Shown: piece by piece, positions 3,397 to 42,488 of the stretch
Layout of the letters: the number at the start of each line of letters is the position of its first letter
How positions within the stretch are numbered: the stretch's first letter is position 1
NCBI GenBank assembly: GCA_963795935.1
Contig: CAWCJO010000023.1
Coordinates: 33,688 to 97,687 of the forward strand
Length of the DNA: 64,000 bases
From: Bryobacterales bacterium
Lineage (GTDB): Bacteria > Acidobacteriota > Terriglobia > Bryobacterales > Bryobacteraceae
Direction: 5' to 3'
The notes under the pieces: model-generated
Database searches by the model: none
What the model was told of the DNA's origin: nothing
What the model saw: the letters and a program-made list of their open reading frames with translations, nothing else
Position numbers and translations under genes: made by a program

Positions 3397-3416
3397 ATTT
3401 TGCCGCGGAAATTAAT

Positions 3417-7048: not shown

Positions 7049-7049
7049 G

Positions 7050-21687: not shown

Positions 21688-21720
21688 TTTTTCCAGTGTA
21701 CGCGGTAGAATCCAGGTGTT

Positions 21721-23286
21721 GTGACCAGGAGAGATTTTGTTCGCGCCAATGCTGCGGGGGCACTGGCGGCCACTCAGGCTTCGGCGGGAGCGGCGACGCA
21801 GGCTGGATCCGGAGCGGTAGCGGGCGCGGGAAAACAGCCCAACATACTGCTGATCATGGCGGATCAATTGACGCCTTTCATGACCAGCGTGTATGGACAG
21901 AAGGCCGCGCGCACTCCTAATTTGGATCGTTTGGCGAAGGGCGGGACGGTTTTTGACAATGCCTATTGCAACAGCCCGCTATGCGTGCCGAGCCGCACGT
22001 CGCTGTTTACGGGAACGCTGCCGGCCAAAATCGAGGCATGGGACAACGCCGCCGAATTCGCGGCGCACCGCCCGACCTTCGTGCATTATTTGCGGCGCGC
22101 GGGCTACCGCACGGTGGTATCGGGGAAAACGCATTTCATCGGACCCGATCAGATGCACGGCTTCGACGAGCGGTTGACGCCGTGCATTTTCCCGGCGGGT
22201 TTTGCGATGCTGCCGGACTGGCGATTGGGCGCGCGGCTCAATAATGGAACGTCGATGCAGAGCATGCTGCGCATGCTCGGGCCTTCCACGTGGACGAAGC
22301 AGCTCGGATACGACGAAGAGGCGTTTCAGCGTTCCATGGCGCGGCTGCGGGCTTACGCGACCGGGAAACGGGAGCAGCCGCTATTTCTAAATGTTTCGTT
22401 CACGCAGCCTCACGACCCTTTCACCACCACGAAGGAATTTTTGGATCTGTATCGCGCCGAGGACATGCCGCTGCCGCGGGATGACGGCGACATCAAGAAG
22501 CTGAGTCCTACGTATGAGTGGTTCGAAATTTTTCATGGCACAAATTTGGAACGGCTGCCGCCTGAAAAGATCCGCGAGGGGCGGCGCAACTATCTCGGCA
22601 TGATCTCCTGGGTAGACAACCGCGTTGGCCAGTTGATGGACGAGCTGGACCGTTTAAGGATGACGAACGACACGGTGGTAATTTTCACGAGCGATCACGG
22701 CGAGATGTGCGGCGAGCACGGGCAGTGGTCGAAGCGCTTGATGCTGGAATGGTCGGCGCGCATTCCACTGATTGTCAGCGCTCCCGGCCGATTTGCGGCG
22801 GGACGGCGTAATACGGCGCTGGTGTCGCTGGTGGATCTGTTCCCGACGCTGACGGATTTGGCGGGAGCGAAGCTCGAAACTCCGCTGGACGGCCGGAGCT
22901 GGATACCGCTGCTGAACGGAAGCGAAGACGGGCGGGAGCGCGAGGTGGTGGCGGAATATTTAGGCGAGGGGGCGCTCGAGCCCATTCGCATGTTGCGCTC
23001 CGGGCAGCGCAAAATTATCGTGACCAACGGCTACGGACCGCAGCTATTCGATCTGGAGCGCGATCCGGGGGAGACGGTGAATCTTTCGGGTGAGCGCGAT
23101 TACGCTGCGGTTGAAAAGAAACTGCTTGCGAAGGTGGAACAGAATTGGGACGGTCCGGGTCTGAAGCGGGCCGTTATGGGCAGCCAACAAGAGCGGCTGC
23201 TGATTCGATCGAGCGATCAACACGGCACGCCGGTGCATTGGGATTACGAGCCTAGCGAGCCGGGGCCTTATCGCGAACCCAAGTAA
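21721..23286 (+). CDS. Sulfatase (choline-sulfatase-like) with a Tat signal
   Basis: MTRRDFVRANAAG Tat motif, CVPSRTSLFTG FGly motif and a SDHGEM region. Intact 521 aa. Confidence 0.8.
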   Translation: MTRRDFVRANAAGALAATQASAGAATQAGSGAVAGAGKQPNILLIMADQLTPFMTSVYGQKAARTPNLDRLAKGGTVFDNAYCNSPLCVPSRTSLFTGTLPAKIEAWDNAAEFAAHRPTFVHYLRRAGYRTVVSGKTHFIGPDQMHGFDERLTPCIFPAGFAMLPDWRLGARLNNGTSMQSMLRMLGPSTWTKQLGYDEEAFQRSMARLRAYATGKREQPLFLNVSFTQPHDPFTTTKEFLDLYRAEDMPLPRDDGDIKKLSPTYEWFEIFHGTNLERLPPEKIREGRRNYLGMISWVDNRVGQLMDELDRLRMTNDTVVIFTSDHGEMCGEHGQWSKRLMLEWSARIPLIVSAPGRFAAGRRNTALVSLVDLFPTLTDLAGAKLETPLDGRSWIPLLNGSEDGREREVVAEYLGEGALEPIRMLRSGQRKIIVTNGYGPQLFDLERDPGETVNLSGERDYAAVEKKLLAKVEQNWDGPGLKRAVMGSQQERLLIRSSDQHGTPVHWDYEPSEPGPYREPK

Positions 23287-23295
23287 TCGCGTTCT

Positions 23296-24159: not shown

Positions 24160-24233
24160 TGTTTTTCCATTATCCGGCGCCTTGAATGATGATATGATTT
24201 CCCTTTTGCGTTCAGGACCGGCGAGGAGAGCCT

Positions 24234-27200
24234 ATGCGAGCTATCTTGATCGGGGTCGTGTGCGCCGCGGCGATGTGGGCGCAAGTAGACACGGGCGCTG
24301 TTTCGGGCGTGGTCACGGACCGGACCGGGTCGGTTGTGCCAGGGGCGACGGTTCAAATCGTTCAGAAGGAAACGAATTTTCAAACCACCCTGCAGACCAA
24401 TGAGTCGGGATTTTATTCGGCTCCGTCGCTGCAGCCGGGGCAGTATCAGATCACGGTTACGAAAGAAGGCTTCCGGCCTCAAAAAAGTCAGGTATTCGAG
24501 GTTCGGGTACAGGATCGCGCGGAGCTGAATTTTCAGCTCGAAGTGGGCGCGACGACGTCAGAGGTGACGGTATCGGCCGCGGCGCCGCTGCTGGAATCGG
24601 AGACTTCGAATCTGGGGCAGGTGATCGAAGAGAAGACGGTCACCGATTTGCCGCTGAACGGACGCAGCTTCATACAACTGGCGACGCTGACGGCCGGAAC
24701 GCTGCCTTCGACGCGGACGCCGGAGCGCGACAATTTTATCTCGAATGGCGCGCGGGCGGTGCAAAACAGTTACCTGCTGGATGGTATCGACAACAAGAAC
24801 CGCATCCTGGGATTCGACAAGAGCTCGGCGCAGATCGTGCAGCCCATCGTGGATGCGATCGAGGAGTTCAAGGTACAGACATCGACGTTTTCGGCGGAGT
24901 TCGGGCAGGCGGCGGGCGGCGTGGTGAACGTGACGCTACAGATCGGGAACGAACAGCTTCCATGGCGATCTGTTCGAGTTTCTGCGCAACTCCGACCTGG
25001 ACGCGACGCCGTATTTCCAACCGGCGGGGGGCAAGCCGCTGTTTATCCAGAACCAATTTGGAGCGACGTTTGGCGGGCCGATCGTCAGGAATAAAACATT
25101 TTTCTTCGGGAGTTGGCAGAGCTCGCGAGAGGAAAATGCCGCTCCGCAGATCGCTTCCGTGCCGACGGCGGCGGAGCAGCAGGGCGTCTTCCCGTCCAAG
25201 ATCACGGACCCCGCGACGGGCGCGGCGTTCCCCGGCAACACCATTCCGATGAGCCGCTGGGATCCGGTTGCCGCGGCGCTGGTGGCTTTATATCCGGCGC
25301 CCAACCAGCCGGGCATTGTGAATAACTTTTATTACAACCCGAAGGAACGCGTCAGCAGCGACACTTATAATCTACGGCTCGATCATCATTTCAACTCGAA
25401 GGATTACCTGTTCGGGCGAATCTCGCAGGGCTGGGGAGAAAATTTTCTTCCCACGCTGTTGCCGCAACCGGCGAATCAACAGGGCTTCACGGATCTGACG
25501 CAGCGGCAAATCATGGTGAGCGAAACGCATACGCTGAGCGCGAACAAGCTGAACGAATTCCGGTTGGGTTTCACATACACGCTGAACAATCAGGACGTTC
25601 TGGGGCCGCGGCTGTTTTCGCAATTTGGGATCAAGGGCGCGCTCGACGAGCCGAGGATCAAGGGCTTGCCCGTGTTCACCATCACGGGCTTTTCCGGTTT
25701 GGGCACGCAAAACCCGGGCAACACGCCGATTCCGGCGTCGGGTAGCGGCAACTTTCCGGCCGAGAAATCGGGGAAACTGTGGCAGCTTCTGGATAATTTT
25801 TCCTGGATACACGACCGGCACTCGATCAAGTTCGGCGTCGATCTGGAGCGCGTCACGATTTTCGCGTATGCGACCAACAGCGCGCGGCCGACTTATACGT
25901 TCAACGGAACGTACACTGGTTCCCCTCTGGCCGATTTTCTGTTGGGATATGTTTACAGCGCGTCCACTTCGGAGCAGCAACTCGATACCCTGCAGCAGTA
26001 CGTTTACAACGGCTACGTGCAGGACGACTGGAAAGCGACGAGCAGGTTGACGCTCAACATCGGGTTGAGATATGAGCTGCCGACGCCATTCGTCGAAGCG
26101 CACGATCGCCAATCGAATTTCGTGCTGGACCAGGGGCCATGCTATTTGCAGCTCATCACGGTCGCTCAGGACGGGCAGTGCGGCATAGGACGAGCGTTGA
26201 CGCGGACGGATTACAACAACTTCGCGCCGCGAGTGGGGCTGGCGTATCAGGCGACGGGGAAGACGGTAGTCCGCAGCGGCTTCGGCGTTTTTTATGGGCG
26301 CGATGAAGACCTCGGAATTCAGCGGCGGTTGCCCAATAACCCGCCGTTCGTGACCAGCTCTTCGTTCACGGGGAGCCAGACTACGCCCACGTTCCTGCTG
26401 CAGAACGGATTCCCCTCGGATGCATTATCTCTGGCGAGCCCGAGCGCCACCGTGAACAGCTATCCGTTTAATTTCCCGGTCCCGTATGTGATTCAGTGGA
26501 ACTTAAACGTGGAACGGCAGCTGGGTGGGAACTTTGTCGCGCAAGTGGGCTACACGGGTTCGGAAGCGCACAAGTTGCCGGAGGTGGTCAACGTCAATCA
26601 GGCGTATCCGGGCACGGGAAACGTGAATGCGCGGCGTCCGTACCAGGGCATTGGCGATATTTTCTTCTATGGACCGCTGGACAATTCCACGTACAATGCG
26701 TTGATCGCGAAACTGGAGCGGCGCTTTTCGAAAGGCCTGAGCCTGCTCGCGTCGTACACGTATGGGCACTCCATTGACGGCGGCGGCAATCAGAACGACA
26801 GTAACGATCCGGGTCCGCAGAATCCGCGCGATTTGCAGGCACAGAAAGGCTCGTCGAATTTCGACGTGCGGCATCGTTTCGTGGTGAGCGGATTCTATCA
26901 ACTTCCGTTCGGGAAATCGGGCGGCTTCTTCTCGCCTCTGGTTAAGAACTGGCAGCTATCCGGAATCTTTTCGGCTCAAACCGGGCAGCCGCTGACGATT
27001 ACGCTGAGCACGGATCCGACGGGAACGGGCACGACGGCGCGGCCGAACCGGATCAGCGATGGCAATCTTCCAGCAGATGAACGGACGCCCACGCATTGGT
27101 TCGATACGGCGGCATTCGTCAACCCGGGTTGCGTGTGCTATGGGAATTCGGGCCGCGATATTATCAGGGCGCCCGGTTTCGTGGATCTCGACCTGGGAGT

Positions 27201-27384
27201 GCTGCGCGATTTTCTGATTGGGGAGCGGTTCCGTTTGCAGTTCCGGGCGGAATCGTTCAATTTGATGAACCATCCTAATTTTGGATTGCCGAACATGGTG
27301 ATTGGAAATCCCATGGCAGGCATCATCACGTCGGTGGTCAACCCGGAGCGTCAAAATCAGCTTGCATTGAAATTATATTTCTAG
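24234..27384 (+). CDS. TonB-dependent receptor (Acidobacteria type) with a +1 frameshift at ~24960
   Basis: Signal peptide plus CarboxypepD_reg motifs (GVVTDRTGSVVPGATVQIV...YQITVTKEGF), plug (VTDLPLNGRSF), and a barrel with terminal LALKLYF. Removing one C in cttccatgg restores ...NVTLQIGNEQLHGDLFEFLRNSDLDATPYF... across the two ORFs. Confidence 0.8.
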
Positions 27385-27400
27385 GCGGTTCTAAACACAT

Positions 27401-30388
27401 ATGGCATTCACGCGTTCACTGTTTGTAATCGCATTGACGGCCTCGGCGGCGATGGCCCAAGGTCCCGCGAGCGTTCGGATTCTGTTGGGCATTAGCGATA
27501 AGGTGGCGACGCCCTGGGACGGCTCGGTGGAAGTTGCAGGGAGCGGGACGGCGACGCTGGAGCCGTGGCGATTTGATGGCTCGGACACCATCTCGGGCAC
27601 GACGTGGAAGGCGAGCACGCACCAGGTGCGGCTGTTCAGTCAAGGAAGGCAGGTGAACGGAACGCCCATCCTGGACGTGGTGGCGAACGGCGTGGTCGTG
27701 AATGTGCCGCAGGCTTCCGGCGATACGGCGCTTCGCGTTAAAACGGCGCAGGGCAACTTCGACGTGAAGCTGAGCGAGATTCCGTATGGAACGAGCGTTT
27801 TGAAATTGAATGGGCGGGTGTTTGTGGATCGCGTGCCGGCGGCGCAACGTCTGACCGAGACTCCGGATGAAGAGGATTTTCCCGCGGCGACGACGGCAAA
27901 GAATGGCGATATCTGGATCGCGTACGTGGTGTTCCGCCATAATCCGAACCACGACGCGCTGGCGGCTCCAAGAACGACGCCGGTGACGGATTTTGCGGGT
28001 TTGAAAGCGCCGACGGGAGGAGATCGGATCATGGCGCGGCGCTATGCGAACGGGCATTGGGACGATCCGGTGGCGATGACGGATGGGGGCGGAGACCTGT
28101 ACCGCTGCTCGGTCGCGGTGGATGGACGAGGGCGTCCGTGGGTTTTCTGGTCCGCGAATGTCTCCACCGGTACTAGGGCCAACTTCGATATTTTCGGACG
28201 CGCGATCGAAAACGGAAGAGCGGGAAGACAGGTGCAGCTTTCGCGCGAGCCCGGATCGGATGTGGACGCCGTTGCGGCGACGGATTCGAATGGGGCGGTG
28301 TGGGTCGCCTGGCAGGGTTGGAGAAACGGGCGCGCGGGGATCTTCGCCGCGGTGCAGAACGGCGATGGATTTGCGGCGCCGGCGGCGGTTTCGAAGTCCT
28401 CGGGGAATGAATGGAATCCCGCGATTGCGGCCGCGAAGGGAGGACGCGTGACGGTTGCGTGGGACTCCTACCGCGCGGGGAATTACGACGTTTACGCGCG
28501 AACGGCCTCGGGCGCAAACAACTGGGGCGCGGAAACGCCGCTGGCGGCGACGGCGCGGTACGAGGCGTATCCATCGATCGCCTATGACGATTCGGGCCGG
28601 CTGTGGGTGGCGTATGAAGAGGGCGGCAAGGGGTGGGGCAAAGATTTCGGCGCTTATCGCACGGGCGGCGTGTCGGTCTATCAAGGGCGCGTGATTCGGA
28701 TTCGCGGATTCGAGCCGAATGGGCGCGCGGTGCAACTTCCGAGCGATGTCGCGACGGTGCTGCCGGGGATTCCGACGCTGAAGGCGGAGACCAATGGCAT
28801 GCCCAGCGGAAGCGACGGTCTGGATCCAGATCCCGCGGGGGCCAAGGATCGCGTTCCGGGGCGGCCGGTGCTGAATCAGCTCAACCCCAAGAACAGCCTG
28901 CCGCGGTTGCTGATCGACGGGTCGGGGCGGATGTGGCTGGCGTTCCGCAGCTACCATCCCATCTGGTGGAATCCGATCGGCACGGTGTGGACGGAATTCG
29001 TGGTTTCGTTCGACGGCGCGAGCTGGACGGGGCCGGTGTTTCTGCCGCACAGCGGAAACCTGCTGGACAACCGCCCGGCGCTGGCATCGGCGAGTGGGGG
29101 GGATTTGATGGTGGTCGGTTCGTCCGATGGGCGGCGCGATTACCTGTTAGGCGAGCAGCGCGGCGGAGGATACGGCGGCTTGGGAACGCCGCTGCGCGAT
29201 CCGTACAATAACGATCTGTTCGCGAATGAGATCGCGCTGGGGGCGGGGCGCGGATTGGAAAGGGTTGTGACGGCGGCGGCGCCGCGGGCGGGCGAGGCGC
29301 CGCCGGGGGCGGCTCAGGAAGCGGCCGCCATCCAACGCGTGCGCGAATATCGAATGCCTTCAACTGGAATGCGAATCGTGCGCGGGGAGTTCCACCGGCA
29401 CAGCGAGCTATCGCACGACGGCGGGTATGATGGCACGCTGTTCGACCAATGGCGCTACATTTTAGACTCCGCATCGCTCGACTGGGTGGGATGCTGCGAC
29501 CACGACAACGGCGGCGGCCGCGAGTACACGTGGTGGCTGGCGCAGAAGCTGACGGACATTTATTACGCGCCCGGGCAATTCGTGCCCATGTTCAGTTATG
29601 AACGGAGCGTTGCGTATCCGGAGGGGCATCGCAACGTGATTTTCGTTCAACGCGGCATCCGGACATTGCCACGTTTGCCGAAGATGGCGCCGGATACGCC
29701 GGGGCACGCTCCGGACACGCAGATGCTGTACGCGTATCTGAGATTTTTCAACGGCGTTGTGGGCTCCCACACGAGTGGAACCAACATGGGGACGGATTGG
29801 CGCGACAACGATCCGAATCTGGAGCCGGTAGTGGAGATTTATCAAGGCGACCGGCAGAGCTACGAAATGCCGGACGCGCCGCGATCGAGCTCGGCCGATG
29901 ACGCGATTGGGGGATGGCGTCCCAAGGGTTTCGTCAATCTGGCGCTTGCGAAGGGCTACCGGCTGGGCTTTCAAGCCAGCTCCGATCACGTCTCCACGCA
30001 TTTGAGCTACTGTAATATCTTCGTGAAAGACGCCACGCGCGAATCCGTTTTCGACGGGTTGAAGAAGCGGCACGTTTACGGCGCGACCGACAACATTCTG
30101 GCCGACGTTCGCAGCGGCGATCACATGATGGGCGACGTTTTTTCGACGGCGTCGCCGCCGGCGTTACAGGTGAGCCTGACCGGCACTTCGAACTTCTCGA
30201 AAGTGTACGTCGTGAAAGACAACAACTACGTCTATTCGGTCAATCCCAATTCACCGACAGTGTCTTTCTCGTGGATCGATAACGCCGCCGAGCCATCGAA
30301 GACCAGCTACTACTACGTTCGCGGCGAGCAGGACAACGGCGAGATCGTGTGGGTTTCGCCGATGTGGATCACATACACCGGAAAGTAA
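27401..30388 (+). CDS. Large secreted protein, paralog A (995 aa): N-terminal beta-propeller with repeated W-x-A/F-W motifs plus a C-terminal PHP-like metal-dependent phosphoesterase domain (possibly DUF3604-type)
   Basis: Signal peptide. Repeated blades (WVFWSAN, WVAWQGWRNG, VTVAWDSYRAGNYDVYAR, WVAYEEGG, WLAFRSY). The C-terminal domain carries GEFHRHSELSHDGGYDG...CCDHDNGG...SDHVSTH, i.e. a PHP-style HxH...D...H metal-ligand pattern. It starts 17 bp after the TonB receptor stop. Confidence 0.6.
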   Translation: MAFTRSLFVIALTASAAMAQGPASVRILLGISDKVATPWDGSVEVAGSGTATLEPWRFDGSDTISGTTWKASTHQVRLFSQGRQVNGTPILDVVANGVVVNVPQASGDTALRVKTAQGNFDVKLSEIPYGTSVLKLNGRVFVDRVPAAQRLTETPDEEDFPAATTAKNGDIWIAYVVFRHNPNHDALAAPRTTPVTDFAGLKAPTGGDRIMARRYANGHWDDPVAMTDGGGDLYRCSVAVDGRGRPWVFWSANVSTGTRANFDIFGRAIENGRAGRQVQLSREPGSDVDAVAATDSNGAVWVAWQGWRNGRAGIFAAVQNGDGFAAPAAVSKSSGNEWNPAIAAAKGGRVTVAWDSYRAGNYDVYARTASGANNWGAETPLAATARYEAYPSIAYDDSGRLWVAYEEGGKGWGKDFGAYRTGGVSVYQGRVIRIRGFEPNGRAVQLPSDVATVLPGIPTLKAETNGMPSGSDGLDPDPAGAKDRVPGRPVLNQLNPKNSLPRLLIDGSGRMWLAFRSYHPIWWNPIGTVWTEFVVSFDGASWTGPVFLPHSGNLLDNRPALASASGGDLMVVGSSDGRRDYLLGEQRGGGYGGLGTPLRDPYNNDLFANEIALGAGRGLERVVTAAAPRAGEAPPGAAQEAAAIQRVREYRMPSTGMRIVRGEFHRHSELSHDGGYDGTLFDQWRYILDSASLDWVGCCDHDNGGGREYTWWLAQKLTDIYYAPGQFVPMFSYERSVAYPEGHRNVIFVQRGIRTLPRLPKMAPDTPGHAPDTQMLYAYLRFFNGVVGSHTSGTNMGTDWRDNDPNLEPVVEIYQGDRQSYEMPDAPRSSSADDAIGGWRPKGFVNLALAKGYRLGFQASSDHVSTHLSYCNIFVKDATRESVFDGLKKRHVYGATDNILADVRSGDHMMGDVFSTASPPALQVSLTGTSNFSKVYVVKDNNYVYSVNPNSPTVSFSWIDNAAEPSKTSYYYVRGEQDNGEIVWVSPMWITYTGK

Positions 30389-30403
30389 AATCGTATTTCA
30401 TCG

Positions 30404-33400
30404 ATGGACGAAGAACGGCAGGAACGAATTCGCTATTACGCCTTTGCCGCCGTGGTCGGCATTTTGCTGGCCCTGAACGGCCTCGGAATCTTCCGGACTT
30501 TTTTGGGGATCGACACGGCGGTGTTCATTACGCTGCTGGCCGGTTACAAGACTTTCTACAACTCGATTTCGGCATTGTTGGAGAAGCGCATCTCGGCGGA
30601 TATCGCGTTGTGCGTCGCGGTGATCGCGGCGCTGGCGGTGGGCCAGTATCTTGCCGCCGCGGAAGCGATGTTCATCGTGCTGGTGGGGGAAGGCCTGGAA
30701 TCGTATGCGGCGGGCCGGACCGCGGCCGCGATCGAGCGATTCGTGCAGCAATTGCCGCGCACCGCGCGCGTGTTGCGGGAGGGGCGCGAGGAAGAAGTAG
30801 ACGCCGAATCGCTGGCGCGTGGACGATCTGATCCTGGTGCGCGCGGGTGAAAGGATCGCCGCCGACGGCGTGGTTCAGGACGGTTTCTCGGCGGTGGATG
30901 AAAGCTCCATCACGGGCGAGCCATTGCCGCGGGAGAAGCAGCCGGGCGACGAGGTATTTTCCGGGGCATTGAACGGCGCGGGGCTGCTGCGCGTGCGCGT
31001 TTCGCGCGCCGGGTCGGATACAACTCTGGCGCGCGTGATCAAGCTGGTCGAAGAAGCGCAGCAAAAGCGCGCGCCGGTGGAACGCCTGGCGGATAGAGTG
31101 GCGAAGTACTTCCTTCCGGCGTTGTTGCTGGCGGGCGCGTTGACGTTTTACTTCACGCACGACTGGCTGCGAACGGTTTCGGTCCTGATCGTGGCTTGTC
31201 CCTGCGCGCTGATTTTGGCCACGCCTACCGCGATGGTGGCGGCAATCGGAGGTCTGGCGCGGCGGGGCATTCTGGTGCGCGGCGCGGCGGTGCTGCAGAG
31301 GGCGGCGCGCGTCGGCACGATGGTCTTCGATAAGACCGGAACCATCACGGAAGGACAATTCGAGGTTGTCGCCGTTATTGCTCTGGACCGGACAGAGGAC
31401 GAGCTGCTGGCGCTGGCGGCGGGAGCGGAGCGTGCTTCGGATCACGCCTTGGCGCGCGTGATCGTGGAGGAAGCGGAGCGGCGGGGCATCGCCTCTTCGG
31501 CGCCTGACAGCGCGCAGGCGCTCCCGGGGCGCGGCGTGGAGTGCGCCTTCGGCGGGCGTACGGTGCGGGTGGGCAATGCGGGATTTTTAGAGCAGGCGGG
31601 CATTCGTAATACGGCGGCGCTGCTCGAGGAAGCGGACCGGCTCGGCGCCTCCGCCGTGCTGGTATCGGATGGCGATCGCCTGGCGGGCGGGATCCTGCTT
31701 CGCGACCGGCTGCGCGACGGAGTGCGTGCAGCGATGGCGGGCTTCGACGAGCTTGGCATTACGCGCAAGTTCATGCTGACCGGAGATAGGCGGCGCGCGG
31801 CGGAAGCGATCGCGCGGGAAGCGGGAATTTCCGAACTCGAAGCGGAGCTGTTGCCGGAACAGAAGGTGGAGCGCATTCGGGCGTTGATGTCGCAGGGCGC
31901 GGTCGCGATGGCCGGAGATGGGATCAACGATGCGCCGGCGCTGGCGAGCGCAAGCGTTGGAATCGCGGTGTCGGGCGCAAGCGATATTACGGCCGAAGCC
32001 GCGGACGTAGTCTACCTGCCGCGAAGTTTGGAGAAGCTTCCGAAATTTTTCGAGGTTAGCCGGCGCGCGGTCTCGACGGCCTGGCAGAACATTATTCTTT
32101 TCGCCGGGGTCGTGAATGTGGGCGCCGTGATTTGCGCCGCGACGGGCGTGATCGGACCGATCGGGGCGGCGCTGACGCACCAGCTTTCCTCGTTTCTGGT
32201 GATGTTGAACTCGCTGCGGCTGCTGCGGGTGGAGCGGTCCGAGTCGCGCGTGGCGCGCTATGCGACTTCTCTGGCAGCGAGGTTGGCGTCGCGCACGGCG
32301 CTTCCACAAGCGTGGGACCGGCTGCGAAATGTCACGGGGCGCATCGATATTTCCGCGGGCATTGATTGGCTGACGGCGCACCGTCAATCGCTCGCGCGCC
32401 CGGCGCTTGCGGCGGTGGCGTTGCTGGCTATATTGAACGGCGCTTACATCATCCGGCCCGACGAGGTCGGCATTGTGCAGCGCTTTGGCCGCAAGCTGCT
32501 GCCTTATAGCGAGCCGGGGCTGCATTACAAGCTGCCGTGGCCGGTGGAGCGATTGACGCGCATACAATCGCGGCGCGTGCGGCGGCTGGAGATCGGGTTC
32601 CGCTCGAATTCAACATCGCCCGAGGCCGAGCCGGCGGCATACGAATGGAACGTTCAGCACGCCGCTGGACGGTTTCAACGCCGGCCGGAAGAAGCATTGA
32701 TGCTGACCGGCGATCAGAACATGATCGAGCTGAATGCCACGATTCACTACGATCTGCCGCATCCGGACGATTTCCTATTTCGTCAATTCGATGCGGAGGG
32801 AAGTCTGCGCGCGGCGGCCGAATCCGCCATCGAATCCGTCATTACGGTGACGGGGCTTGATGCCGTCCTGACATCCGGAAGGAGAGCAATTGAGGAGAAG
32901 GCGCGCCGCGAACTGCAGAAGCGGCTGGACCGTTATGGATGCGGGATTCGGGTTCGGAGCTTGCGGCTGGAAGACGTGCATCCGTCGGTCGAAGTAGTGG
33001 ACGCGTTTCGCGACGTCTCCGGAGCGTACGAAGAGAAGAACCGGTTGATCAACGAAGCGGAAGGTTATCGCAACGAGCAGATCGCGCTGGCGCGCGGCAA
33101 TGCGAAGGCGCGCATTGCGAACGCGAACGCGTACACCGACGGGCCGCGTGAACCGGGCGGAGGGCGATGCGAGCCGTTTTGAGCAGCGCGAGGCCGCATT
33201 CCGGGCGACCCCCGGGCCGGCCGAGACGCGGCTCTATTTCGAAACGATCGACCAGGTGCTTCCGGGGAAGAGGAAATTGATCGTCGATCACACCAAGTCG
33301 GCGCGCCGTCTGTTTCTTCTTGAAGACGGCGCGGTGCTGGGCGGCACGCCGGCGGGTCCACTGTTCGCTCCCCCGGCGCAGGGCGCAAGAATACCAGAAG

Positions 33401-33405
33401 AGTAA
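30404..33405 (+). CDS. P1B-type heavy-metal-translocating ATPase continuing in frame into an HflK-like SPFH/band-7 domain. Two +1 frameshifts (near 30815-30825 and 33140-33150) break the reading frame.
   Basis: ATPase motifs: ITGEPLP, TM6 CPC (VACPCALILATP), DKTGTIT, GDGINDAPAL, final TMs ...LNSLRLL. There is no stop after them. The frame continues through a TM helix (ALAAVALLAILNGAYII) into IVQRFGRKLLPYSEPGLHYKLPWPVE...DQNMIEL...EAEGYRNEQIALARGNAKARIA (HflK). After a frameshift it continues as AEGDASRFEQREAAFRATPGPAETRLYFETIDQVLPGKRKLIVD. Confidence 0.6.
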
Positions 33406-33416
33406 TAGAAACTTCA

Positions 33417-34304
33417 ATGCATCACATTCACCGGAAGTACGTTGCAGGCGCGGCAATCGCGGCGGGTCTGCTTTGCTATCTCACCTTTTTCACCGTGAAG
33501 GAGACCGAATTCGTTCTCGTGACGCAATTCGGACGGCCGCTCTACACGGTTGCGTCCGCGGGATTGCACGTCAAGTGGCCGTTCCAAAGCGCGACGCGCT
33601 TCGACCGGCGGCTGCGCATCTACAATCCGAGGCCGTCGGAGTTTTTGACGCGCGATAAAAAGAACGTCGTCATCGACAATTACGTGGCCTGGAAAATACA
33701 AGATCCGAACCGCTTCGTGCAAACCGTGGGCGATCCGGTGGCGGCCGAGATGCGCCTGCACGACATTGTCTGGTCGGGGCTTTCAGCGGCGCTCGGAACC
33801 CACGATCTGGATTCGCTCGTCTCGGCGGATGAATCCAAAGTTCAAGCCGGCAATCTTCTGGACCAACTCACGTCCAATACGGACCGCGCGGCGCTGGAGC
33901 AATACGGCATCGACGTGGTTGACGTTCGCATCAAGCGTCTGAATCTGCCGGAACAGAACAAACAGAGCGTATACGCGCGCATGCGGGCTGAGCGCGAACG
34001 AATTGCGCGGCAATACCGGGCTGAAGGCGAAGAACAGGCGCTCGCGATCCGGGCGGACGCGGACCGCCAGAAAGAAGAAATTTTGTCGGTCGCTTATAAG
34101 CAGGCGGAAACAGTTCGCGGGCAGGGCGATGCGGATTCCACGCGAATTTATGGCCAGGCGTATTCGAAAAACCCGCGGCTGTATAAACTTCTTCGCACGC
34201 TGGAGTCTTATAAGAAGATATTCGACGATAAGACGACCGCGATTTTGAGCTCCGATTCCGAATTGCTGAAGGTGCTGATCCACGGCGAGGCCGGCGTGAA
34301 ATGA
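33417..34304 (+). CDS. hflC: HflC-like SPFH/band-7 membrane protein
   Basis: N-terminal TM helix, VKETEFVLVTQFGRP, an SPFH core and a C-terminal coiled region with ERIARQYRAEGEEQA. ~295 aa, as for HflC. Confidence 0.75.
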   Translation: MHHIHRKYVAGAAIAAGLLCYLTFFTVKETEFVLVTQFGRPLYTVASAGLHVKWPFQSATRFDRRLRIYNPRPSEFLTRDKKNVVIDNYVAWKIQDPNRFVQTVGDPVAAEMRLHDIVWSGLSAALGTHDLDSLVSADESKVQAGNLLDQLTSNTDRAALEQYGIDVVDVRIKRLNLPEQNKQSVYARMRAERERIARQYRAEGEEQALAIRADADRQKEEILSVAYKQAETVRGQGDADSTRIYGQAYSKNPRLYKLLRTLESYKKIFDDKTTAILSSDSELLKVLIHGEAGVK

Positions 34305-35287
34305 GCTCGCTGCTTATCGAGCCGGCAACGGCCGAACCGCAACCGCGCTTCGTGGAAGCGGCGCCAAGCGCTCCTCCACGGCGGCGGCGGCGCGTGGGCG
34401 AGATTCTGGTCGTCCTCTGGGCGATTTCAGGCGTGTATCTTGTCCGTCCCGATCAACAGGCGGTTGTGACGCGATTTGGCGCCGTGGTGGAGTCGCGGGT
34501 CTATCCCGGTTTGCATTACGCGCTGCCGTGGCCGCTGGACCGCGTGTACAAAGTGAAGGTGCACCAGACGCAGCGCCTCGCGATCGGCGGCGATGTGGCG
34601 GATGCGGTGCTCGGGCGCACGCAGCCGCTCGCTTCTCAGTTTCTGACGGGCGATCAGAACATTATCAACATGCGGGTAGTCGTGCAATATTCGGTTGCCG
34701 TGCCGGTGGACTATCTTTTTTCCACTCTCGATGTCGCGAAATGCGCCGGTGCGGCGGTGGAAGCGGAACTCGCGCGGCGCCTGGCGCACGGTAGCGTGGA
34801 TGCCGTGCTTACGACCGAAAAGTTGGCGATCCAGGACGAGGCTCTCTCGACGGCGCAGAAACGTCTGAACCAGTACCGGACGGGCGTGAAGCTTTCGACC
34901 GTCAATATTGAAAGCGTCGCTCCACCGCCCGAAGCGGCGGACGCATTTCGGGATGTCGCCAGCGCGCGCGCCGATACCGCGCGGATTGTCGATGAAGCGC
35001 AGGGTTACGCGAACGATCTCATTCCCCGGGCGCGCGGCGAGGCGAAGCAACTGACGGAAGCGGCCGAAGCGTACAGGGCGTCCAAAGTGAACGAGGCGGC
35101 CGGCGAGGCGGCGCGGTTCACGGCGGTTGCGGCGGAGTATTCGAAGGCTGCCGATGTCACCGGGAAGCGGCTATATATCGAAGCGATGGAGCAGATTCTT
35201 CCGAAGATCCGCAAAATGATTGTCGATCCGAACGGGAACCTGGATCTCTCGATTATCCGCAAAGGCGAAGCAGCCCCGAAGCCGTGA
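34301..35287 (+). CDS. hflK: HflK-like SPFH/band-7 membrane protein (second HflK copy, intact)
   Basis: Pro/Arg-rich N-terminus, TM helix, VRPDQQAVVTRFGAV...PGLHYALPWPL, LTGDQNIINM, and a C-terminal EAQGYANDLIPRARGEAKQL...AEYSKAADVTGKRLYIEAMEQILPKIRKMIVD. Confidence 0.75.
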   Translation: MSSLLIEPATAEPQPRFVEAAPSAPPRRRRRVGEILVVLWAISGVYLVRPDQQAVVTRFGAVVESRVYPGLHYALPWPLDRVYKVKVHQTQRLAIGGDVADAVLGRTQPLASQFLTGDQNIINMRVVVQYSVAVPVDYLFSTLDVAKCAGAAVEAELARRLAHGSVDAVLTTEKLAIQDEALSTAQKRLNQYRTGVKLSTVNIESVAPPPEAADAFRDVASARADTARIVDEAQGYANDLIPRARGEAKQLTEAAEAYRASKVNEAAGEAARFTAVAAEYSKAADVTGKRLYIEAMEQILPKIRKMIVDPNGNLDLSIIRKGEAAPKP

Positions 35288-35757
35288 ATCGCGATCGAAT
35301 AGCGAAGGCGGCGACGATCGTTGTCGTGATCGTTTTGCTTGGTGCTGTGGTCATTCGCAGGAGCGGCGTGCGCCTGGCATCTCGTCCCGATCCTGCTCCG
35401 CAGGATGCCATTTACCAGATGCTCGAAGCGGCGCGCGCGGGCAACACGGCAGCGTACCTGGCGCGCTACACGGGACAGATGCGAAGCGCGCTGAACCAAA
35501 CCATCGCGGAAAAAGGGGAAGCGGGGTTCAAGAGTTACTTGCAATCGAGCAACGCGGAAATTAAGGGTCTGGCGGTTTTTGGGCCGAAGCAGGTTTCCGA
35601 TAATGAAGTTGCGGTGCGGGTGGAATATGTTTATCGGGAACGCAACGAGGTGCAGGTCTTCTATCTCGTGAAGACCGCGGGAATCTGGAAAATCTCGCGC
35701 GTGGACAATACGGAGCGGATCAAGACTCTGGTTCCGTATGGAACGCCGGTCCAGTGA
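35284..35757 (+). CDS. Hypothetical membrane-anchored protein (single TM plus ~120-aa periplasmic domain)
   Basis: TM helix ATIVVVIVLLGAVVI followed by a small globular domain. Overlaps the hflK stop by 4 bp, so it is probably part of the same operon. Confidence 0.5.
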   Translation: MNRDRIAKAATIVVVIVLLGAVVIRRSGVRLASRPDPAPQDAIYQMLEAARAGNTAAYLARYTGQMRSALNQTIAEKGEAGFKSYLQSSNAEIKGLAVFGPKQVSDNEVAVRVEYVYRERNEVQVFYLVKTAGIWKISRVDNTERIKTLVPYGTPVQ

Positions 35758-35809
35758 GCGCAAACCGCTTCTTTCGGCCGCGGCTCGGAAACGGTGCGCG
35801 GCTTAATTA

Positions 35810-35935
35810 AGAAGCGGTGTTCGGCGAATGCGCCGCGCATCGGCAAGCCGTGTTCGGGCGGAGGCAGCGCCGTTCGCACGACGGGTGTTCGGGCGAAAGC
35901 GGCACGCGTTGGCCCAAGCCGCGTTCGGGACGTCA
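35810..35935. repeat. Degenerate short tandem repeat (~17-18 bp unit, ~7 copies, core G(T/C)GTTCGG) in a convergent intergenic region
   Basis: GTGTTCGGcgaatgcgcc / gCGCATCGGcaagcc / GTGTTCGGGcggaggcagcgc / cGTTCGCacgacgg / GTGTTCGGGcgaaagcggcac / gCGTTGGCccaagcc / gCGTTCGGGacgtcagg, read directly from the sequence. Confidence 0.45.
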
Positions 35936-38838
35936 GGGTTGTTTCGCGTAGTTTACCCAGATCGGACTGGACCAGGCCAGATTGCGGTCTTTCTGCATTA
36001 CGCGGACGTAGTACCAGCTCTCTTTGCCGCCCGGGTTGCTATCGACATAGGTGAACTCGGCGCGATCGGACGTGCCTGGCGTTTGAAATACAAACGTTCC
36101 GTCTTTCACGATTTCGATCTTCTCGATATCGTCCGTGCCCTGCACCTTTATGAGGAACTGCGGCGCGGCGGAGGCGGAAAACGCATCGCCCATGAGGTAT
36201 TGGCGGCCAGCGGCATCGCGCGCCTCGAAATCGAGAACGATGTTGTCCGTAGCCCCATAGGCGTGCCGTTTGCGCATGCTCTCCACGATGTCCGCGCGAT
36301 TCGTCGTGGGCGTGTAAATCAGAGTGTACGATGAGTGCGTGGAGACGTGATCGGAGCTCGATTGCACGCCGAGCTTGTAGCCTTTGGCGAGCGCATTCCA
36401 GTACATTCCGGAGGGCTGATATTTGCCGTGAGCGGGAACGCTGTAGTTGTCGCTGTCGGCGCGCGGCGCTCCAGCATATTCGCTGCTCGCATCGTAGCCC
36501 TGATAAATCTCCACGAGAGGTTCCAGGACCGGATCGTTGTCGCGGTAATCGCTGCCCTGATCGGTGGCGAGGGAGTGCAGCATACAGATGCCGCGATTTT
36601 GTCTGAGATAGGGATACAGAATCGGCCCGGTGTGTATCGTTCCGCGCTGCTCGGCCTGGCTGATCGGCAGCGTTCTGACGCCGCGCTCGGGAAAAACGAC
36701 ATTGCGGTGGCCGTTCGGAAACGGCACGCTTCGCTCATAGCCGAACAGGGGCGTCATCCGTCCTCGAATGTGAAACAGATCGATGGATTTTTCCGTGCGC
36801 CACCAAGTGTATTCGTTATCTTGTCCCTCGTTATGATCGGAGATAATGCCCGTATCCATGGAGGCTGCGTCCAGCATGTAGCGCCAGTAGTCTTCAACCG
36901 AACCGTCGCCCGCGCCGTCTTGCGAGATTTCCGTGTGGCGGTGGAAATCGCCGCGCAGGATGCGAAGCTCATTGCCCGCAAGGTTGACGCGATAGGAACG
37001 GATGCGTTGCACGTCCTCCGGCTCATGGCGATGAATGGGTGTTTCGTTCCCGCGTGGATCCGCGAAATCGGCGAGCAACGCCGGCGGAGACGCTACCGAG
37101 CGATGGGAATCGGGGCGCCGAAAATCAGATCATTCGGGCCATTGCGGTTGACCCCGGCCGGGCCGCCCATCAGCATGGTGCGGTTATCGTTCACCCACAC
37201 CATCCAGTTGCCGGCCGCTCCCGAACGGATCTGCATGGGGCTTTCCGGGCGCGAGCTGGCCTCGGGAATGGGGGCCAGCGGAGTCCAGCGGTCGCCTTCC
37301 AAAGTAGTCAGGAAACGCTCCCAGCGTCCGCCGTTGGCCCAGTGATCGGAGCGGTTATTATTCACGGCGGTGCGAAGTTCGAGCTCGATCCAAATGCGCC
37401 CGGAAGCGTCGCTCAACACGCGCGGCAACTCCACGAAGCGGTTATAACGGCTGGGAATCGAGTCGGACAGATTGGCCGCGGGCTGCTTCCAGCGGCCGTT
37501 TTCGAGCACCGCAAGGCGCGGATGGCGATCGAAGTACAGAGTGGTGCCGCGCCACATGTCGTCGCGATTCCAGTCCTTGCCCCAGTTCGAGCCGGACTCA
37601 TCCCACGCCACCCACGCGCGATCCTGCTTGTCCACCGCAACCGTGGGATGCGCCTGAAAACGTACGGACTGCGTAACCTGATCGAGCGGTCCGAGCGTTC
37701 CATCGGAGGCGACGCGGCGCAGGAAGATATCGTAATTTCCGGTGCGATAACTATCCCAGACGACGTAGAGATTGCCTTGGGAATCGCACGCGCCCTGGGG
37801 GGCCCAGGCGCTCGGCCCGCTGATCTCGGTTGCGGTGGACCATTGATCGCCGTTCAACTTGCTCCAGTAGACGTGCGATACGCCGTCCTGATATCCGGTC
37901 CAAATCAGGTGCAGGTTTCCCGCCGCATCGGCGATCATTTGATGAAACATGTTGGGGCTATTGGCGGACGTGATCTGCCGCGGCGCCGACCAGGTCTCGC
38001 CGGAATAAACCCGCGCCCACAGGTTCCAATCCTCATTGGCGCGCTCGGACCAGACGACCCAAATACGGCCGCGGCCATCTTCGGCGATTGCGGTCCGATA
38101 CACGTCGCCTTTTTGAGTGGTGAGCCGGAATGGCACGGACCATCCGCCGGCGATCGAGTGCCGCACGTAAACGTTGTCGCCGTCGTTGCGGTAGGCTTGC
38201 CAGGCAACCCACACCGAGCCATCTTTTGACAGCGCCAGGGAGGGATAATCGTGCTGCTCGACCTCAGCGGCGGCCTGGGGCGGCGAGATCTGCTGCGGCG
38301 TCAGCGTCGGCTGCACCAGGATATCGCCGTCGTTGAAGGAAAGCCTGCGGCCGATCCGCATATCGCCAATCGCGATCGAGAAATTCGCGGATGACGTGCG
38401 GACCTGCGCCGTGGCGGAGGCGGGCGCGTCGACCGTTACGTCCACGCCGGCGGGAACGATGTTTTGCGCAACGGCTTGGCCGATGGGGGTGGGCGCATCC
38501 GGCTGGTTTTCGAAATTGATCCGGCGCAATTGGAGCTTCCAGGCAGAGCCGCCTTCGACTGCATCGGCGGGACCAAAGCGCCACGGCAAGATGCGGACCA
38601 CCGTGCCTTGGCTCAGCGTGATGCTCCCCGAGTAGTTGCCGGCAAGATCCTGTTTCTCCCCGAAGGTTATGCGGAAGGAAAGAGTGTTGGCTGAGGCAGA
38701 CTGCGGCCGCGCGCCGATGGCCTGCAGAGGCGCGGAGCGAGTTCGCTCGGTCACGACGAGCGTCGCGAACAATAGAAGAATTGAAATCGCCGCGACGCCG
38801 GACGCGGCCACTGGATGCCTCTGTGTTATTTTTCTCAT
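35933..38838 (-). CDS. Paralog B of the secreted beta-propeller + PHP-like phosphoesterase protein, split into two ORFs (37093-38838 N-terminal, 35933-37078 C-terminal) by an apparent frameshift near 37078-37095
   Basis: Same architecture as 27401-30388, with ~45% identity by eye in the C-terminal domain: GDFHRHTEISQDGAGDG...ISDHNEG...EYTWW...ERSVPFPNGHRNVVF...SDHVSTH...KRHAYGATDNI. N-terminal blades WVAWQAYRNDGDNVYVR, WVVWSE, HLIWTGY, YVVWDSYRTGNYDIFLR, WVAWDESG. Signal peptide MRKITQRHPVAASGVAAISILLLF. Confidence 0.6.
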
Positions 38839-39039
38839 CGCGCCAATCTCAATCAGCTTATTACACTCGAGACCCGGATGCGTGGCCGGGTATGCACGTA
38901 GCCTGAGACATGCAATCGGGAGCTGAGGACGCGCCGATCTTCGGCGGCAGGGGTTCTTATCGCGGCGTAATCGTCCTCGGACGGATGTATACTCTTGAGG
39001 ATCGGCGGCCAAACGGAAATTCGGATAGAGGAGCCCCTA

Positions 39040-42000: not shown

Positions 42001-42488
42001 AGTTGGTTGGGGGCTGGGAGTTCAGTACCATCACCACGGTTCAAAGCGGCGCGGCGACTGAAACGGCATCATGGGACTCGGCCGGCGTGGTCTTCTCGCC
42101 GAGCGGCGAACGGCTCAACTGCCTTGCCGGCGTGAATCCGGTTCTGCCCAATCCCAACGCGAGTGGCGGGTACGGTTGGTATAACGCGGCGGCATTCTCA
42201 AACCCGGTCGCCGGCACGTTCGGAAACTGCGGCCGCAACAACTTGAGGGGGCCGCGAATGGTGAATGTCGATTTCTCGGCGATCAAGCATTTCCCGATCG
42301 CTGAAAGACAGTCTCTCCAGTTCCGCGTGGAAATGTTTAACGCTCCGAACCATGTAGAGTTAGGCACTCCGGGTTCGGTGAGCTGGGGAGGCAGCTCGAA
42401 TGTTGCGCCACCCTCGAATTTCGGCGTCATTACTACGACCGCCGCAAGCATGCGCCAGATTCAGTTAGCGCTCAAGTACGATTTCTGA
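39040..42488 (+). CDS. TonB-dependent receptor (Acidobacteria type), intact
   Basis: Strong SD (ggatagaggag) 6 nt upstream of the ATG. CarboxypepD_reg motifs (GEVKDQSGAIVAGVAVTATN...YQVKAVATGF), plug (ISELPLNGRDF), and a long barrel ending LALKYDF. Confidence 0.85.

Follow-up and report, generated by a model that had tools for sequence, protein, structure and literature searches.

The DNA analysed here, referred to as the window, is a stretch of 64,000 nucleotides from a Bryobacterales genome, and all coordinates are positions within it. The focal gene is located on the plus strand (27401..30388, ATG start) and encodes a protein of 995 aa, which we annotate as a putative exported propeller–PHP metallohydrolase. 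A 995-aa protein identical to its product is present in NCBI, and at least 834 homologues could be scored, the best 120 of which are 942-1039 aa long and share 57-88% identity with the focal protein; the ORF is a real gene. Reading of the sequence places a Sec signal peptide of the signal peptidase I type at aa 1-19 (27401..27457, plus strand), with a putative cleavage site between MAFTRSLFVIALTASAAMA and QG, and the N-termini of the homologues are comparably hydrophobic, ending in A-x-A before a Q. A lipobox-like motif occurs in just 7 of 120 homologues, and in the focal protein neither a lipobox nor a recognised sorting domain was found by sequence inspection and Pfam search, which leaves the protein with no visible route over the outer membrane.

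Downstream of the signal peptide, an N-terminal beta-sandwich with approximate boundaries (~aa 21-150, 27461..27850), which is all-beta and of high pLDDT in the structure model, precedes a beta-propeller of about seven blades (~aa 157-612, 27869..29236). The propeller had already been read from the sequence in the initial annotation and is borne out by structure matches, which include polysaccharide lyases and lectins. It is followed by a PHP-fold barrel (~aa 658-898, 29372..30094), which bears H665, H667, D673, D700/H701, E734, H743, H790, E812, D862/H863 and H867, and by a C-terminal Ig/FN3-like beta-sandwich (~aa 900-992, 30098..30376), all encoded on the plus strand. The C-terminal motifs quoted earlier were all found in the ORF, which contains GEFHRHSELSHDGG (aa 662-675), CCDHDNGG (698-705), SSDHVSTH (860-867) and RHVYGATDN (890-898).

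Gene neighbourhood and paralogue in the window

The focal gene lies within a co-directional string on the plus strand, which starts with a TonB-dependent receptor (24234..27384; CarboxypepD_reg, Plug and OMP_b-brl_4 according to Pfam) that ends 16 nt before the focal start codon. The junction sequence of the receptor gene contains an apparent frameshift at ~24940-24947, and in two frames the gene aligns at 78-82% identity with an orthologue from another locus (L001) that is intact and 1050 aa long. After a gap of 15 nt, the focal gene is followed by a gene for a P1B-type heavy-metal P-type ATPase fused to an HflK-like SPFH domain (30404..33402, Pfam), in which two frameshifts are apparent (~30814-30819 and ~33137-33148); its intact L001 orthologue matches TIGR01525 with 540 bits and HflK with 198 bits, and the CPC motif was read there. 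The string continues with genes for an HflC-like (33417..34304) and an HflK-like SPFH protein (34301..35287), both of which match Pfam Band_7 and have L001 orthologues matching TIGR01932 (hflC) and TIGR01933 (hflK), respectively, and it ends with a small protein that weakly resembles an Rv0361-like membrane protein (35284..35757; NF051431, 30.5 bits compared to a cut-off of 37). A scan of positions 23000-39500 for promoters and terminators yielded counts not above those of shuffled sequence. Given the frameshifted receptor and ATPase genes, the operon of the window may be damaged, unless the frameshifts are assembly errors.

Two genes upstream of the focal gene, a choline-sulfatase-like sulfatase is encoded (21721..23286, plus strand; Pfam Sulfatase, TIGR03417 with 485 bits compared to a cut-off of 433), and a xylose-isomerase-like TIM-barrel gene is located next to the locus (23392-24159), as is also the case at locus L086. 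Both sandwich domains, the frameshifts and the conserved neighbours (metal ATPase/HflKC and sulfatase) had been overlooked in the initial annotation.

A second copy with conserved motifs, which had been mentioned for this window, could be located on the minus strand (~38838..35933) by means of tblastn, ORFs and the junction sequence, with a probable start at M59 of the ORF. This paralogous propeller–PHP gene is convergent with the cluster, and its product is 43% identical to the focal protein in the C-terminal part and 27-28% in the N-terminal part, with the motifs GDFHRHTEISQDG, SDHNEG, SSDHVSTH and RHAYGATDN. It is frameshifted between 37120 and 37090, and its L001 orthologue, which is intact and 950 aa long, aligns to it in two frames. 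A further TonB-dependent receptor, similar in type to the first (38910..42488, plus strand; CarboxypepD_reg and OMP_b-brl_4, 734 bits), is encoded divergently from the paralogue. The ORF at 475-3396, which was also considered as a candidate for the paralogue, was rejected; it encodes a TonB-dependent receptor unrelated to the focal protein.

The catalytic domain and its relation to known families

Structure prediction of aa 631-995 (pLDDT 83.6, pTM 0.88) yielded a distorted (beta/alpha)7 barrel for the catalytic domain, which matches solved PHP domains. The structure search gave PHP-family structures as the best matches of this model (Foldseek E-value of 3.4e-7 to 3E38). The earlier proposal of a PHP-like domain is supported by the modelled fold, but not by a match to the canonical Pfam PHP family (PF02811), which was absent at E<=10 for the focal domain and the paralogue and at E<=0.01 among 23 diverse family members.

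A near-invariant His/Asp/Glu set of apparent PHP type emerges from the comparison of the domain sequences. Among 113 diverse domains, H665, H667, H701, E734, H743, H790, E812, D862, H863 and H867 each show a conservation of 97% or more, and the same candidate ligands except H667, which is replaced by Gln in the cytoplasmic clade, do not vary in a set of 232 domains with a second clade included. In the latter comparison, the invariance of R666, R685, R735 and R751 is confined to the acidobacterial clade. The structure model places the candidate ligands at the ends of strands or just after them, the strands or positions nearby being 658-666, 698-701 (CCDH), 731-735, 785-789 and 856-860. H665 and H667, forming an H-x-H motif, close the strand of aa 658-666, and D700/H701 come after the next strand (99-100% conserved); E734 lies inside the strand of aa 731-735, H743 just before the strand of aa 744-748 and H790 right after the strand of aa 785-789 (99% conserved). 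The last motif, S-S-D862-H863-V-S-T-H867, has the form D-H-x3-H compared to the canonical D-x-H, with D862, H863 and H867 conserved, and is located in a low-confidence loop of the model (model residues 233-236, pLDDT <50). Alignment of the domain profile with E. coli YcdX by hhalign (global, local and with a more diverse profile) resulted in a probability of <1% and a sensible pairing for the first two motifs only; based on motif order and strand position in the model, we infer a likely equivalence of the focal ligands to those of YcdX.

The sole Pfam catalytic family matched is DUF3604 (PF12228), which had been named as a possibility before. It scores 28.3 bits with the whole protein as query and 31.8-32 bits with the domain alone, compared to a gathering score of 20.4, the match covers only about 72 profile positions (134-206 of 591; aa 708-781) with a shared stretch that includes the Y-E-R...G-H-R-N region, and 22 of 23 diverse family members match as well. 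Against the NF038032 model (CehA/McbA metallohydrolase, 315 positions), the focal domain reaches 35 bits and the paralogue 72.8 bits, both below the curated cut-off of 80 bits, with alignments spanning model positions 3-314 and 4-315, respectively, and 20 of the 23 diverse members match the model over its full length. At the sequence level, the links to DUF3604 and to CehA/McbA are weak and partial; the focal protein belongs to a very large clade that is distantly related to both.

The size of this clade shows that the architecture had been called unusual with some overstatement, since it is shared by thousands of proteins. At 50% identity, 6,332 clusters with this layout were counted at E<=1e-3, or 749 under the stricter limit of E<=1e-30, most of them 900-1040 aa long. 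At least 587 matches were obtained among species-representative genomes, several copies are present per genome, and tandem paralogues recur in Acidobacteriota. Searches of PDB sequences with the single protein and with two profiles returned nothing relevant, and no functional study came up in literature searches on DUF3604 and on the family name; the propeller–PHP family appears to be without any characterised member.

The closest structures to the focal domain, 3E38 (BVU_3505 of Bacteroides vulgatus) and 2ANU (TM0559), are structural-genomics entries described as 'predicted PHP-like metal-dependent phosphoesterases'; they share 12-15% identity with it, show no match at the sequence level and lack a propeller. 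CehA/McbA, i.e. hydrolases of carbaryl and carbofuran whose known substrates are man-made carbamates, were compared by profile only, and here the match covers the whole model, barrel and sandwich. DUF3604, in contrast, is itself an uncharacterised family, to whose profile the focal protein aligns over a small part. Canonical PHP proteins (YcdX, histidinol-phosphate phosphatase, RNase AM and the PHP domains of Pol X and Pol III) have D-x-H as the last motif instead of D-H-x3-H, and the focal protein differs from canonical PHP phosphoesterases in its large added domains and the missing PF02811 match. The carbaryl hydrolase (McbA) of Pseudomonas sp. C5pp is periplasmic, and McbA of P. putida XWY-1 has three essential histidines in its PHP-like domain (PMC8292978). 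A possible functional precedent by analogy is Sb-PDE of Sphingobium sp. TCM1, a Sec-exported PHP phosphodiesterase with ~2 Zn per subunit (PMC5460133), which differs from the focal protein in its length of 441 aa, its canonical PF02811 domain and the lack of a propeller.

Conserved context across loci and phyla

The linkage to a TonB receptor, which had been noticed for the window alone, turned out to be far above the control across loci: a receptor gene on the same strand and within 6 kb was present upstream at 21 of 49 loci and downstream at 3 of 54, and thus was nearby in only 43% of the loci having enough flank. Unbiased clustering of the neighbours of 80 loci recovered the receptor at 33, the ATPase–HflK fusion at 29 and a sulfatase at 25 loci, where the ATPase association was counted from enzyme-anchored loci only and is therefore biased. 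The remaining genes of the ATPase cluster, encoding HflC, HflK and the small protein, were kept in 21, 20 and 12 loci, respectively, and besides these families the clustering gave no further family in more than 6 loci. Among Acidobacteriota, the neighbourhood of receptor and ATPase recurs, accompanied by sulfatases and by paralogues in tandem.

Distant homologues from Clostridia and Fusobacteriota are without a signal peptide and form the last gene in ABC or GPH importer operons. These cytoplasmic homologues, named CehA/McbA family by PGAP, come last in a Bmp-type ABC importer operon in all 7 contigs, and the Cetobacterium homologue comes after a GPH symporter gene. Genes of the propeller–PHP family adjoin nutrient importers in three bacterial groups. 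A tblastn search of plasmids detected only distant 'CehA/McbA family' proteins (Hymenobacter, Streptomyces, Cetobacterium), not CehA/McbA themselves.

Proposed function and alternative explanations

The focal product is best read as a Sec-exported, metal-dependent hydrolase with a most probable location in the periplasm. The best explanation as a whole is in our view a periplasmic metal hydrolase that acts after receptor uptake, to which we assign a probability of about 0.5. The receptor would import a small organic nutrient over the outer membrane, which, as suggested by the contexts of the distant homologues, may be sugar- or nucleoside-like and carry an anionic ester group. This substrate would be gripped by the propeller and sandwich domains. 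Where the barrel strands end on their C-terminal side, a putative centre of two or three metal ions would activate water and cut the ester bond, with the clade-specific R666, R685, R735 and R751 binding the anionic group. More speculatively, the adjoining P1B ATPase might pump the needed metal into the periplasm and in this way load the exported enzyme.

We consider hydrolysis in the periplasm, following uptake, more likely than pre-processing outside the cell, because the homologues of Clostridia and Fusobacteriota that lack a signal peptide end importer operons. According to the initial annotation, the enzyme would instead depolymerise or dephosphorylate a phosphorylated or polymeric substrate outside the cell, and the products would then enter via the TonB-dependent receptor. 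Export is indeed indicated by the signal peptide, the adjacent receptor is conserved, sandwiches and propellers are frequently polymer binders, as illustrated by the lyases and lectins among the propeller matches, and many paralogues per genome together with sulfatase neighbours resemble polysaccharide-utilisation loci. However, the signals are plain signal-peptidase-I signals, the focal protein has neither lipobox nor sorting domain, and the cytoplasmic distant homologues stand behind importers of monosaccharide- or nucleoside-sized substrates, which points to a small, already imported substrate, so that we regard processing outside the cell as quite improbable. Another candidate is a nuclease or nucleotide phosphodiesterase, located in the periplasm or outside the cell, that converts environmental DNA, RNA or nucleotides to importable products. 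Such an activity is highly improbable, since the best structure matches (3E38, 2ANU) are without an assigned function and nuclease matches are weaker, a nucleic-acid-binding domain was not detected by Pfam search, a CUT2-type ABC system would not import nucleic acids ahead of a cytoplasmic nuclease, and the sulfatase neighbours do not fit. The protein could finally serve as a substrate-capture partner of the receptor, like the propeller lipoprotein BtuG capping BtuB, with a PHP domain that is inactive or only binds a ligand. This can hardly be the case, because a near-invariant set resembling metal ligands across thousands of proteins points to catalysis, a lipid anchor is missing, and cytoplasmic homologues cannot be receptor lids; a non-catalytic lectin or receptor lid was accordingly rejected as the main function.

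With regard to the bond that is cut in the proposed periplasmic reaction, a phosphoester substrate is plausible. Among the possible chemistries, which further include sulfate, carboxyl and carbamate esters, we consider phosphoester hydrolysis the most likely single one, with somewhat less than even odds. The majority of PHP enzymes characterised by structure and biochemistry are phosphoesterases, which counts against a PHP-fold hydrolase of a non-phosphoester bond, such as a carboxyl/carbamate or sulfate ester, a lactone, or the glycosidic or nucleosidic linkage of a derivatised sugar or nucleoside. Likewise, the clade-specific arginines suit phosphate binding, carbaryl is a xenobiotic, so that carbamate hydrolysis is improbable as the ancestral role, and Sb-PDE demonstrates that a secreted PHP phosphoesterase exists (PMC5460133). 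On the other hand, CehA/McbA is the sole named family whose match extends over the complete domain, and the characterised proteins with the NF038032 domain are carbamate-ester hydrolases only (PMC8292978). The phosphorylated substrate suggested initially is hypothetical. The neighbours, including sulfatases, a GPH glycoside symporter, Bmp-type ABC importers and a xylose-isomerase-like gene, are also in line with a non-phosphoester bond, and overall we consider the latter rather unlikely.

At the level of the family, propeller–PHP proteins might represent a major unrecognised class of nutrient-processing esterases, whose substrates would be anionic compounds resembling sugars or nucleosides, cleaved directly upon uptake. 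The importers would be TonB-dependent receptors in Acidobacteriota and ABC or GPH systems in Clostridia and Fusobacteriota, and the P1B ATPase–HflK fusion together with HflC/HflK would load the metal in Acidobacteriota. This generalisation is tentative, and we consider it doubtful in its full extent. Acidobacteriota rank with the most abundant bacteria of soils, and their diet is known only in small part. Once its substrate is identified, thousands of 'hypothetical' genes would gain an annotation, and this could reveal a route of organic phosphorus or sulfur mineralisation or of sugar or nucleoside scavenging in soils and peat. In addition, the conserved pairing with the P1B ATPase–HflK fusion is a convenient case in which to study how an exported enzyme may be supplied with metal by a dedicated system.

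The focal gene and its protein family

The focal ORF (27401..30388, plus strand) begins with an ATG start and encodes 995 aa, with an ordinary Sec signal at the N-terminus (MAFTRSLFVIALTASAAMA followed by QG) that has no lipobox. All motifs quoted in the initial annotation were found in the protein, namely GEFHRHSELSHDGG (aa 662-675), CCDHDNGG (aa 698-705), SSDHVSTH (aa 860-867) and RHVYGATDN (aa 890-898), and the same motifs are carried by a minus-strand paralogue (about 38838..35933), which is 43% identical to the focal protein in the C-terminal part and 27-28% in the N-terminal part. NCBI contains an identical copy of the focal protein. Scoring covered at least 834 homologues, of which the best 120 measure 942-1039 aa and show 57-88% identity; those with a named source come from Bryobacteraceae, Solibacter and other Acidobacteriota. 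Homologues are annotated as 'hypothetical' or 'DUF3604 domain-containing'. The gene is real, and the observation on which it had been singled out was confirmed as a whole.

The combination of propeller and PHP-like domain had been called unusual, but it is common, since 6,332 clusters matched at E ≤ 1e-3, and 749 still did so at E ≤ 1e-30, in an exhaustive HMMER search covering 1.84 billion cluster representatives; most of the best 150 clusters are 900-1040 aa long. Our literature search found no study of any propeller–PHP family member, and sequence and profile searches of the PDB found nothing. The Pfam DUF3604 profile scored 28-32 bits (gathering threshold 20.4), matching positions 134-206 of 591 only. 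NCBIfam NF038032 (CehA/McbA family metallohydrolase domain) aligned over its full 315 positions but stayed under its 80-bit cut-off, scoring 35 bits with the focal domain and 72.8 bits with the paralogue; 20 of 23 diverse family members matched it. The nearest characterised proteins are the carbaryl hydrolases CehA and McbA. In Pseudomonas sp. C5pp, McbA is located in the periplasm, and the McbA of P. putida XWY-1 requires three histidines within its PHP-like domain (PMC8292978). Sb-PDE, a secreted PHP phosphodiesterase containing zinc, provides a functional precedent for the export of a PHP phosphoesterase (PMC5460133). We assign the focal protein to a very large propeller–PHP family, so far uncharacterised, that falls within the known kind of PHP metallohydrolases.

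A related domain also occurs on a plasmid of Hymenobacter sp. DG25B (L083:6144-9389), in a 1081-aa 'CehA/McbA family metallohydrolase' with TIG, FN3 and purple-acid-phosphatase-N-like domains next to the PHP-like domain. The gene is followed by an ORF with a T9SS sorting domain. Bacteroidota thus also use the related domain in secreted form, combined with other accessory domains.

Predicted fold and candidate metal site

The AlphaFold2 model of the N-terminal part (aa 21-630, 63 sequences in the input alignment; pLDDT 85.8, pTM 0.90) shows a beta-sandwich at about aa 21-150 followed by a propeller, which is predicted to be a generic one of about seven blades and says nothing on function. In the C-terminal model (aa 631-995; pLDDT 83.6, pTM 0.88), an alpha/beta barrel spans about aa 658-898 and is followed by an Ig/FN3-like sandwich at about aa 900-992 (pLDDT 93-98). 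The proposed PHP-like nature of this part is correct at the fold level, because Foldseek ranks 3E38 first among PDB entries (E 3.4e-7; 'two-domain protein containing predicted PHP-like metal-dependent phosphoesterase'), followed by 2ANU (TM0559, PHP family). Canonical Pfam PHP did not match the focal domain, and comparing profiles with E. coli YcdX gave no significant match.

Among 113 C-terminal domains representing 50%-identity clusters, H665, H667, H701, E734, H743, H790, E812, E822, D862, H863 and H867 are 97-100% conserved. When a second, cytoplasmic clade was included (232 domains), H665, D673, D700, H701, E734, H743, N745, H790, E812, E822, S861, D862, H863, H867 and R890 were invariant or nearly so, while H667 is replaced by Gln in that clade (H-x-Q instead of H-x-H). 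Judged from motif order and predicted secondary structure, the chain order of these residues appears to match the canonical PHP motifs (H-x-H, D-H, E, H, H, the Glu of 'E-I-N', D-x-H), except that the last motif of the focal protein reads D-H-x3-H rather than D-x-H and lies in a low-confidence loop of the model. In YcdX and histidinol-phosphate phosphatase, PHP ligands sit at or just after strand ends, and the conserved candidate ligands are placed at or just past strand ends in the C-terminal model. Four arginines (R666, R685, R735, R751) are invariant in the acidobacterial clade only, the cytoplasmic clade having G, H/N, W and D at these positions, which fits a putative clade-specific binding of an anionic group.

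Gene neighbourhoods in Acidobacteriota and beyond

The focal gene lies in a tightly packed series on the plus strand, comprising genes for a TonB-dependent receptor (24234-27384), the enzyme (after a 16-nt gap), a P1B ATPase–HflK fusion (30404-33402, after a 15-nt gap), HflC-like (33417-34304) and HflK-like (34301-35287) proteins and a small, weakly Rv0361-like protein (35284-35757). The paralogue converges on it from the far side, and beyond that a second TonB-dependent receptor gene is divergently oriented (38910-42488). The same order is complete in locus L001 (enzyme 70% identical) and recurs in L002 (60%) with a sulfatase gene between receptor and enzyme. Promoter and terminator scans around the locus were uninformative (counts no higher than in shuffled sequence).

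Within the window the paralogue is split into ORFs 37093..39012 and 35933..37078, which are read in different frames; because an intact 950-aa L001 orthologue aligns across the break in two frames, we regard it as one gene with a frameshift (37090-37120). Comparison with intact L001 orthologues also places one frameshift in the receptor gene (24940-24947), about 80 nt upstream of a G6 run (25026-25031), and two in the ATPase–HflK gene (30814-30819 and 33137-33148). These four apparent frameshifts within about 15 kb, in three genes flanking the intact focal ORF, suggest that the assembly contains indel errors or, failing that, that the genes have recently begun to decay.

In a survey of 78 loci from species-representative genomes, nearly all Acidobacteriota, 21 of the 49 loci with sufficient flanking sequence had a receptor gene on the same strand no more than 6 kb upstream, whereas the same distance downstream, taken as internal control, gave 3 of 54. 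An ATPase–HflK gene followed the enzyme within 7 kb in 22/52. When all ORFs of 80 loci were clustered without bias, the enzyme family occurred in 77 loci (111 copies, often in tandem), accompanied by receptor (33 loci), ATPase–HflK (29), sulfatase (25), HflC (21), HflK (20) and small-protein (12) families; no other neighbour family recurred in more than 6 loci. Contigs labelled Gammaproteobacteria (L015, an uncultured MAG; L026 and L036, Nevskia soli isolate BOG_genome_mining.15) also carry propeller–PHP genes, whose products share about 70% identity with the focal C-terminal domain; a receptor gene adjoins in L026 and L036, and L026 has the ATPase as well. Errors of binning or labelling seem a likelier cause than genuine occurrence beyond Acidobacteriota.

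The ATPase is typed as heavy-metal P1B (TIGR01525, 540 bits), and its L001 orthologue contains a CPC motif; Pfam reported no HMA domain. An HflK-like SPFH domain is fused to its C-terminus, a fusion of which we know no description. The cluster (window 30404-35757; L001:12989-18350) is kept in 20-29 of 80 loci, usually abutting propeller–PHP genes. Speculatively, judging solely by this adjacency as counted in enzyme-anchored loci, the ATPase may supply the exported enzyme with metal.

Upstream lie two divergent sulfatase genes (20125-21867, minus; 21721-23286, plus), whose ORFs as listed overlap in their 5' parts, which makes later true starts probable; the plus-strand one is choline-sulfatase-like (TIGR03417, 485 bits, above the equivalog cut-off of 433). 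A further TonB-dependent receptor gene (475-3396) precedes, on the same strand, one gene of the alpha-amylase family (3294-4817) and one that is GH28/pectate-lyase-like (4829-7048), so that a receptor gene with hydrolase genes behind it looks like a general arrangement in this genome. A polyphosphate-related pair of Ppx/GppA exopolyphosphatase and CHAD-domain genes (14839-17201, minus) lies about 10 kb from the focal locus, with no evidence of linkage.

Outside Acidobacteriota, a 746-aa Cetobacterium somerae protein without signal peptide is built in the same way from propeller, barrel and sandwich (hhalign probability 99.15%, E 3.7e-19), and its gene (L084:4762-7002) directly follows a glycoside-pentoside-hexuronide (GPH) symporter gene. 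Its 145 relatives at E ≤ 1e-5, named 'CehA/McbA family metallohydrolase' by PGAP, belong to Clostridia, Spirochaetota and Fusobacteriota. In all seven contigs inspected (L085-L091, gene at 7001-9300) the gene is the last of an ABC importer operon, after genes for a Bmp-family binding protein, a double ABC ATPase and two BPD_transp_2 permeases; a histidine kinase and an AraC-type response regulator precede the operon in five, and sulfatase and GPH-type transporter genes are close by in one. Next to the focal receptor gene, on its upstream side, there is a xylose-isomerase-like TIM-barrel gene (23392-24159, minus; AP_endonuc_2, with weak resemblance to hydroxypyruvate isomerase). In an Oscillospiraceae contig, a gene of the same family (L086:6176-6988) directly precedes the one for the cytoplasmic homologue; this family may represent a second conserved partner.

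Order of events and putative substrate

Taken together, these contexts couple the enzyme to an importer in three bacterial groups. Of the initial interpretation, the fold and the receptor linkage were right, while rarity, order of events and substrate class were overstated or unproven. The proposed order, extracellular processing before TonB-mediated uptake, agrees with an exported enzyme linked to a receptor, but is less likely because no surface-anchoring or outer-membrane secretion signal is visible in the sequence and because homologues exist that are predicted to be cytoplasmic, both in Clostridia, which have no outer membrane, and in Fusobacteriota and Spirochaetota, where the signal peptide is missing. 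Most likely, the receptor would import a compound on which the acidobacterial enzyme would then act in the periplasm. By analogy with the importers of the distant clade, the substrate may be about the size of a monosaccharide or nucleoside, and the arginines together with the sulfatase neighbours suggest an anionic ester. Other ester chemistries are left open by the CehA/McbA precedent and the sugar-type contexts, and a phosphoester would be the best single guess for the bond, since most characterised PHP enzymes carry out phosphoester chemistry.
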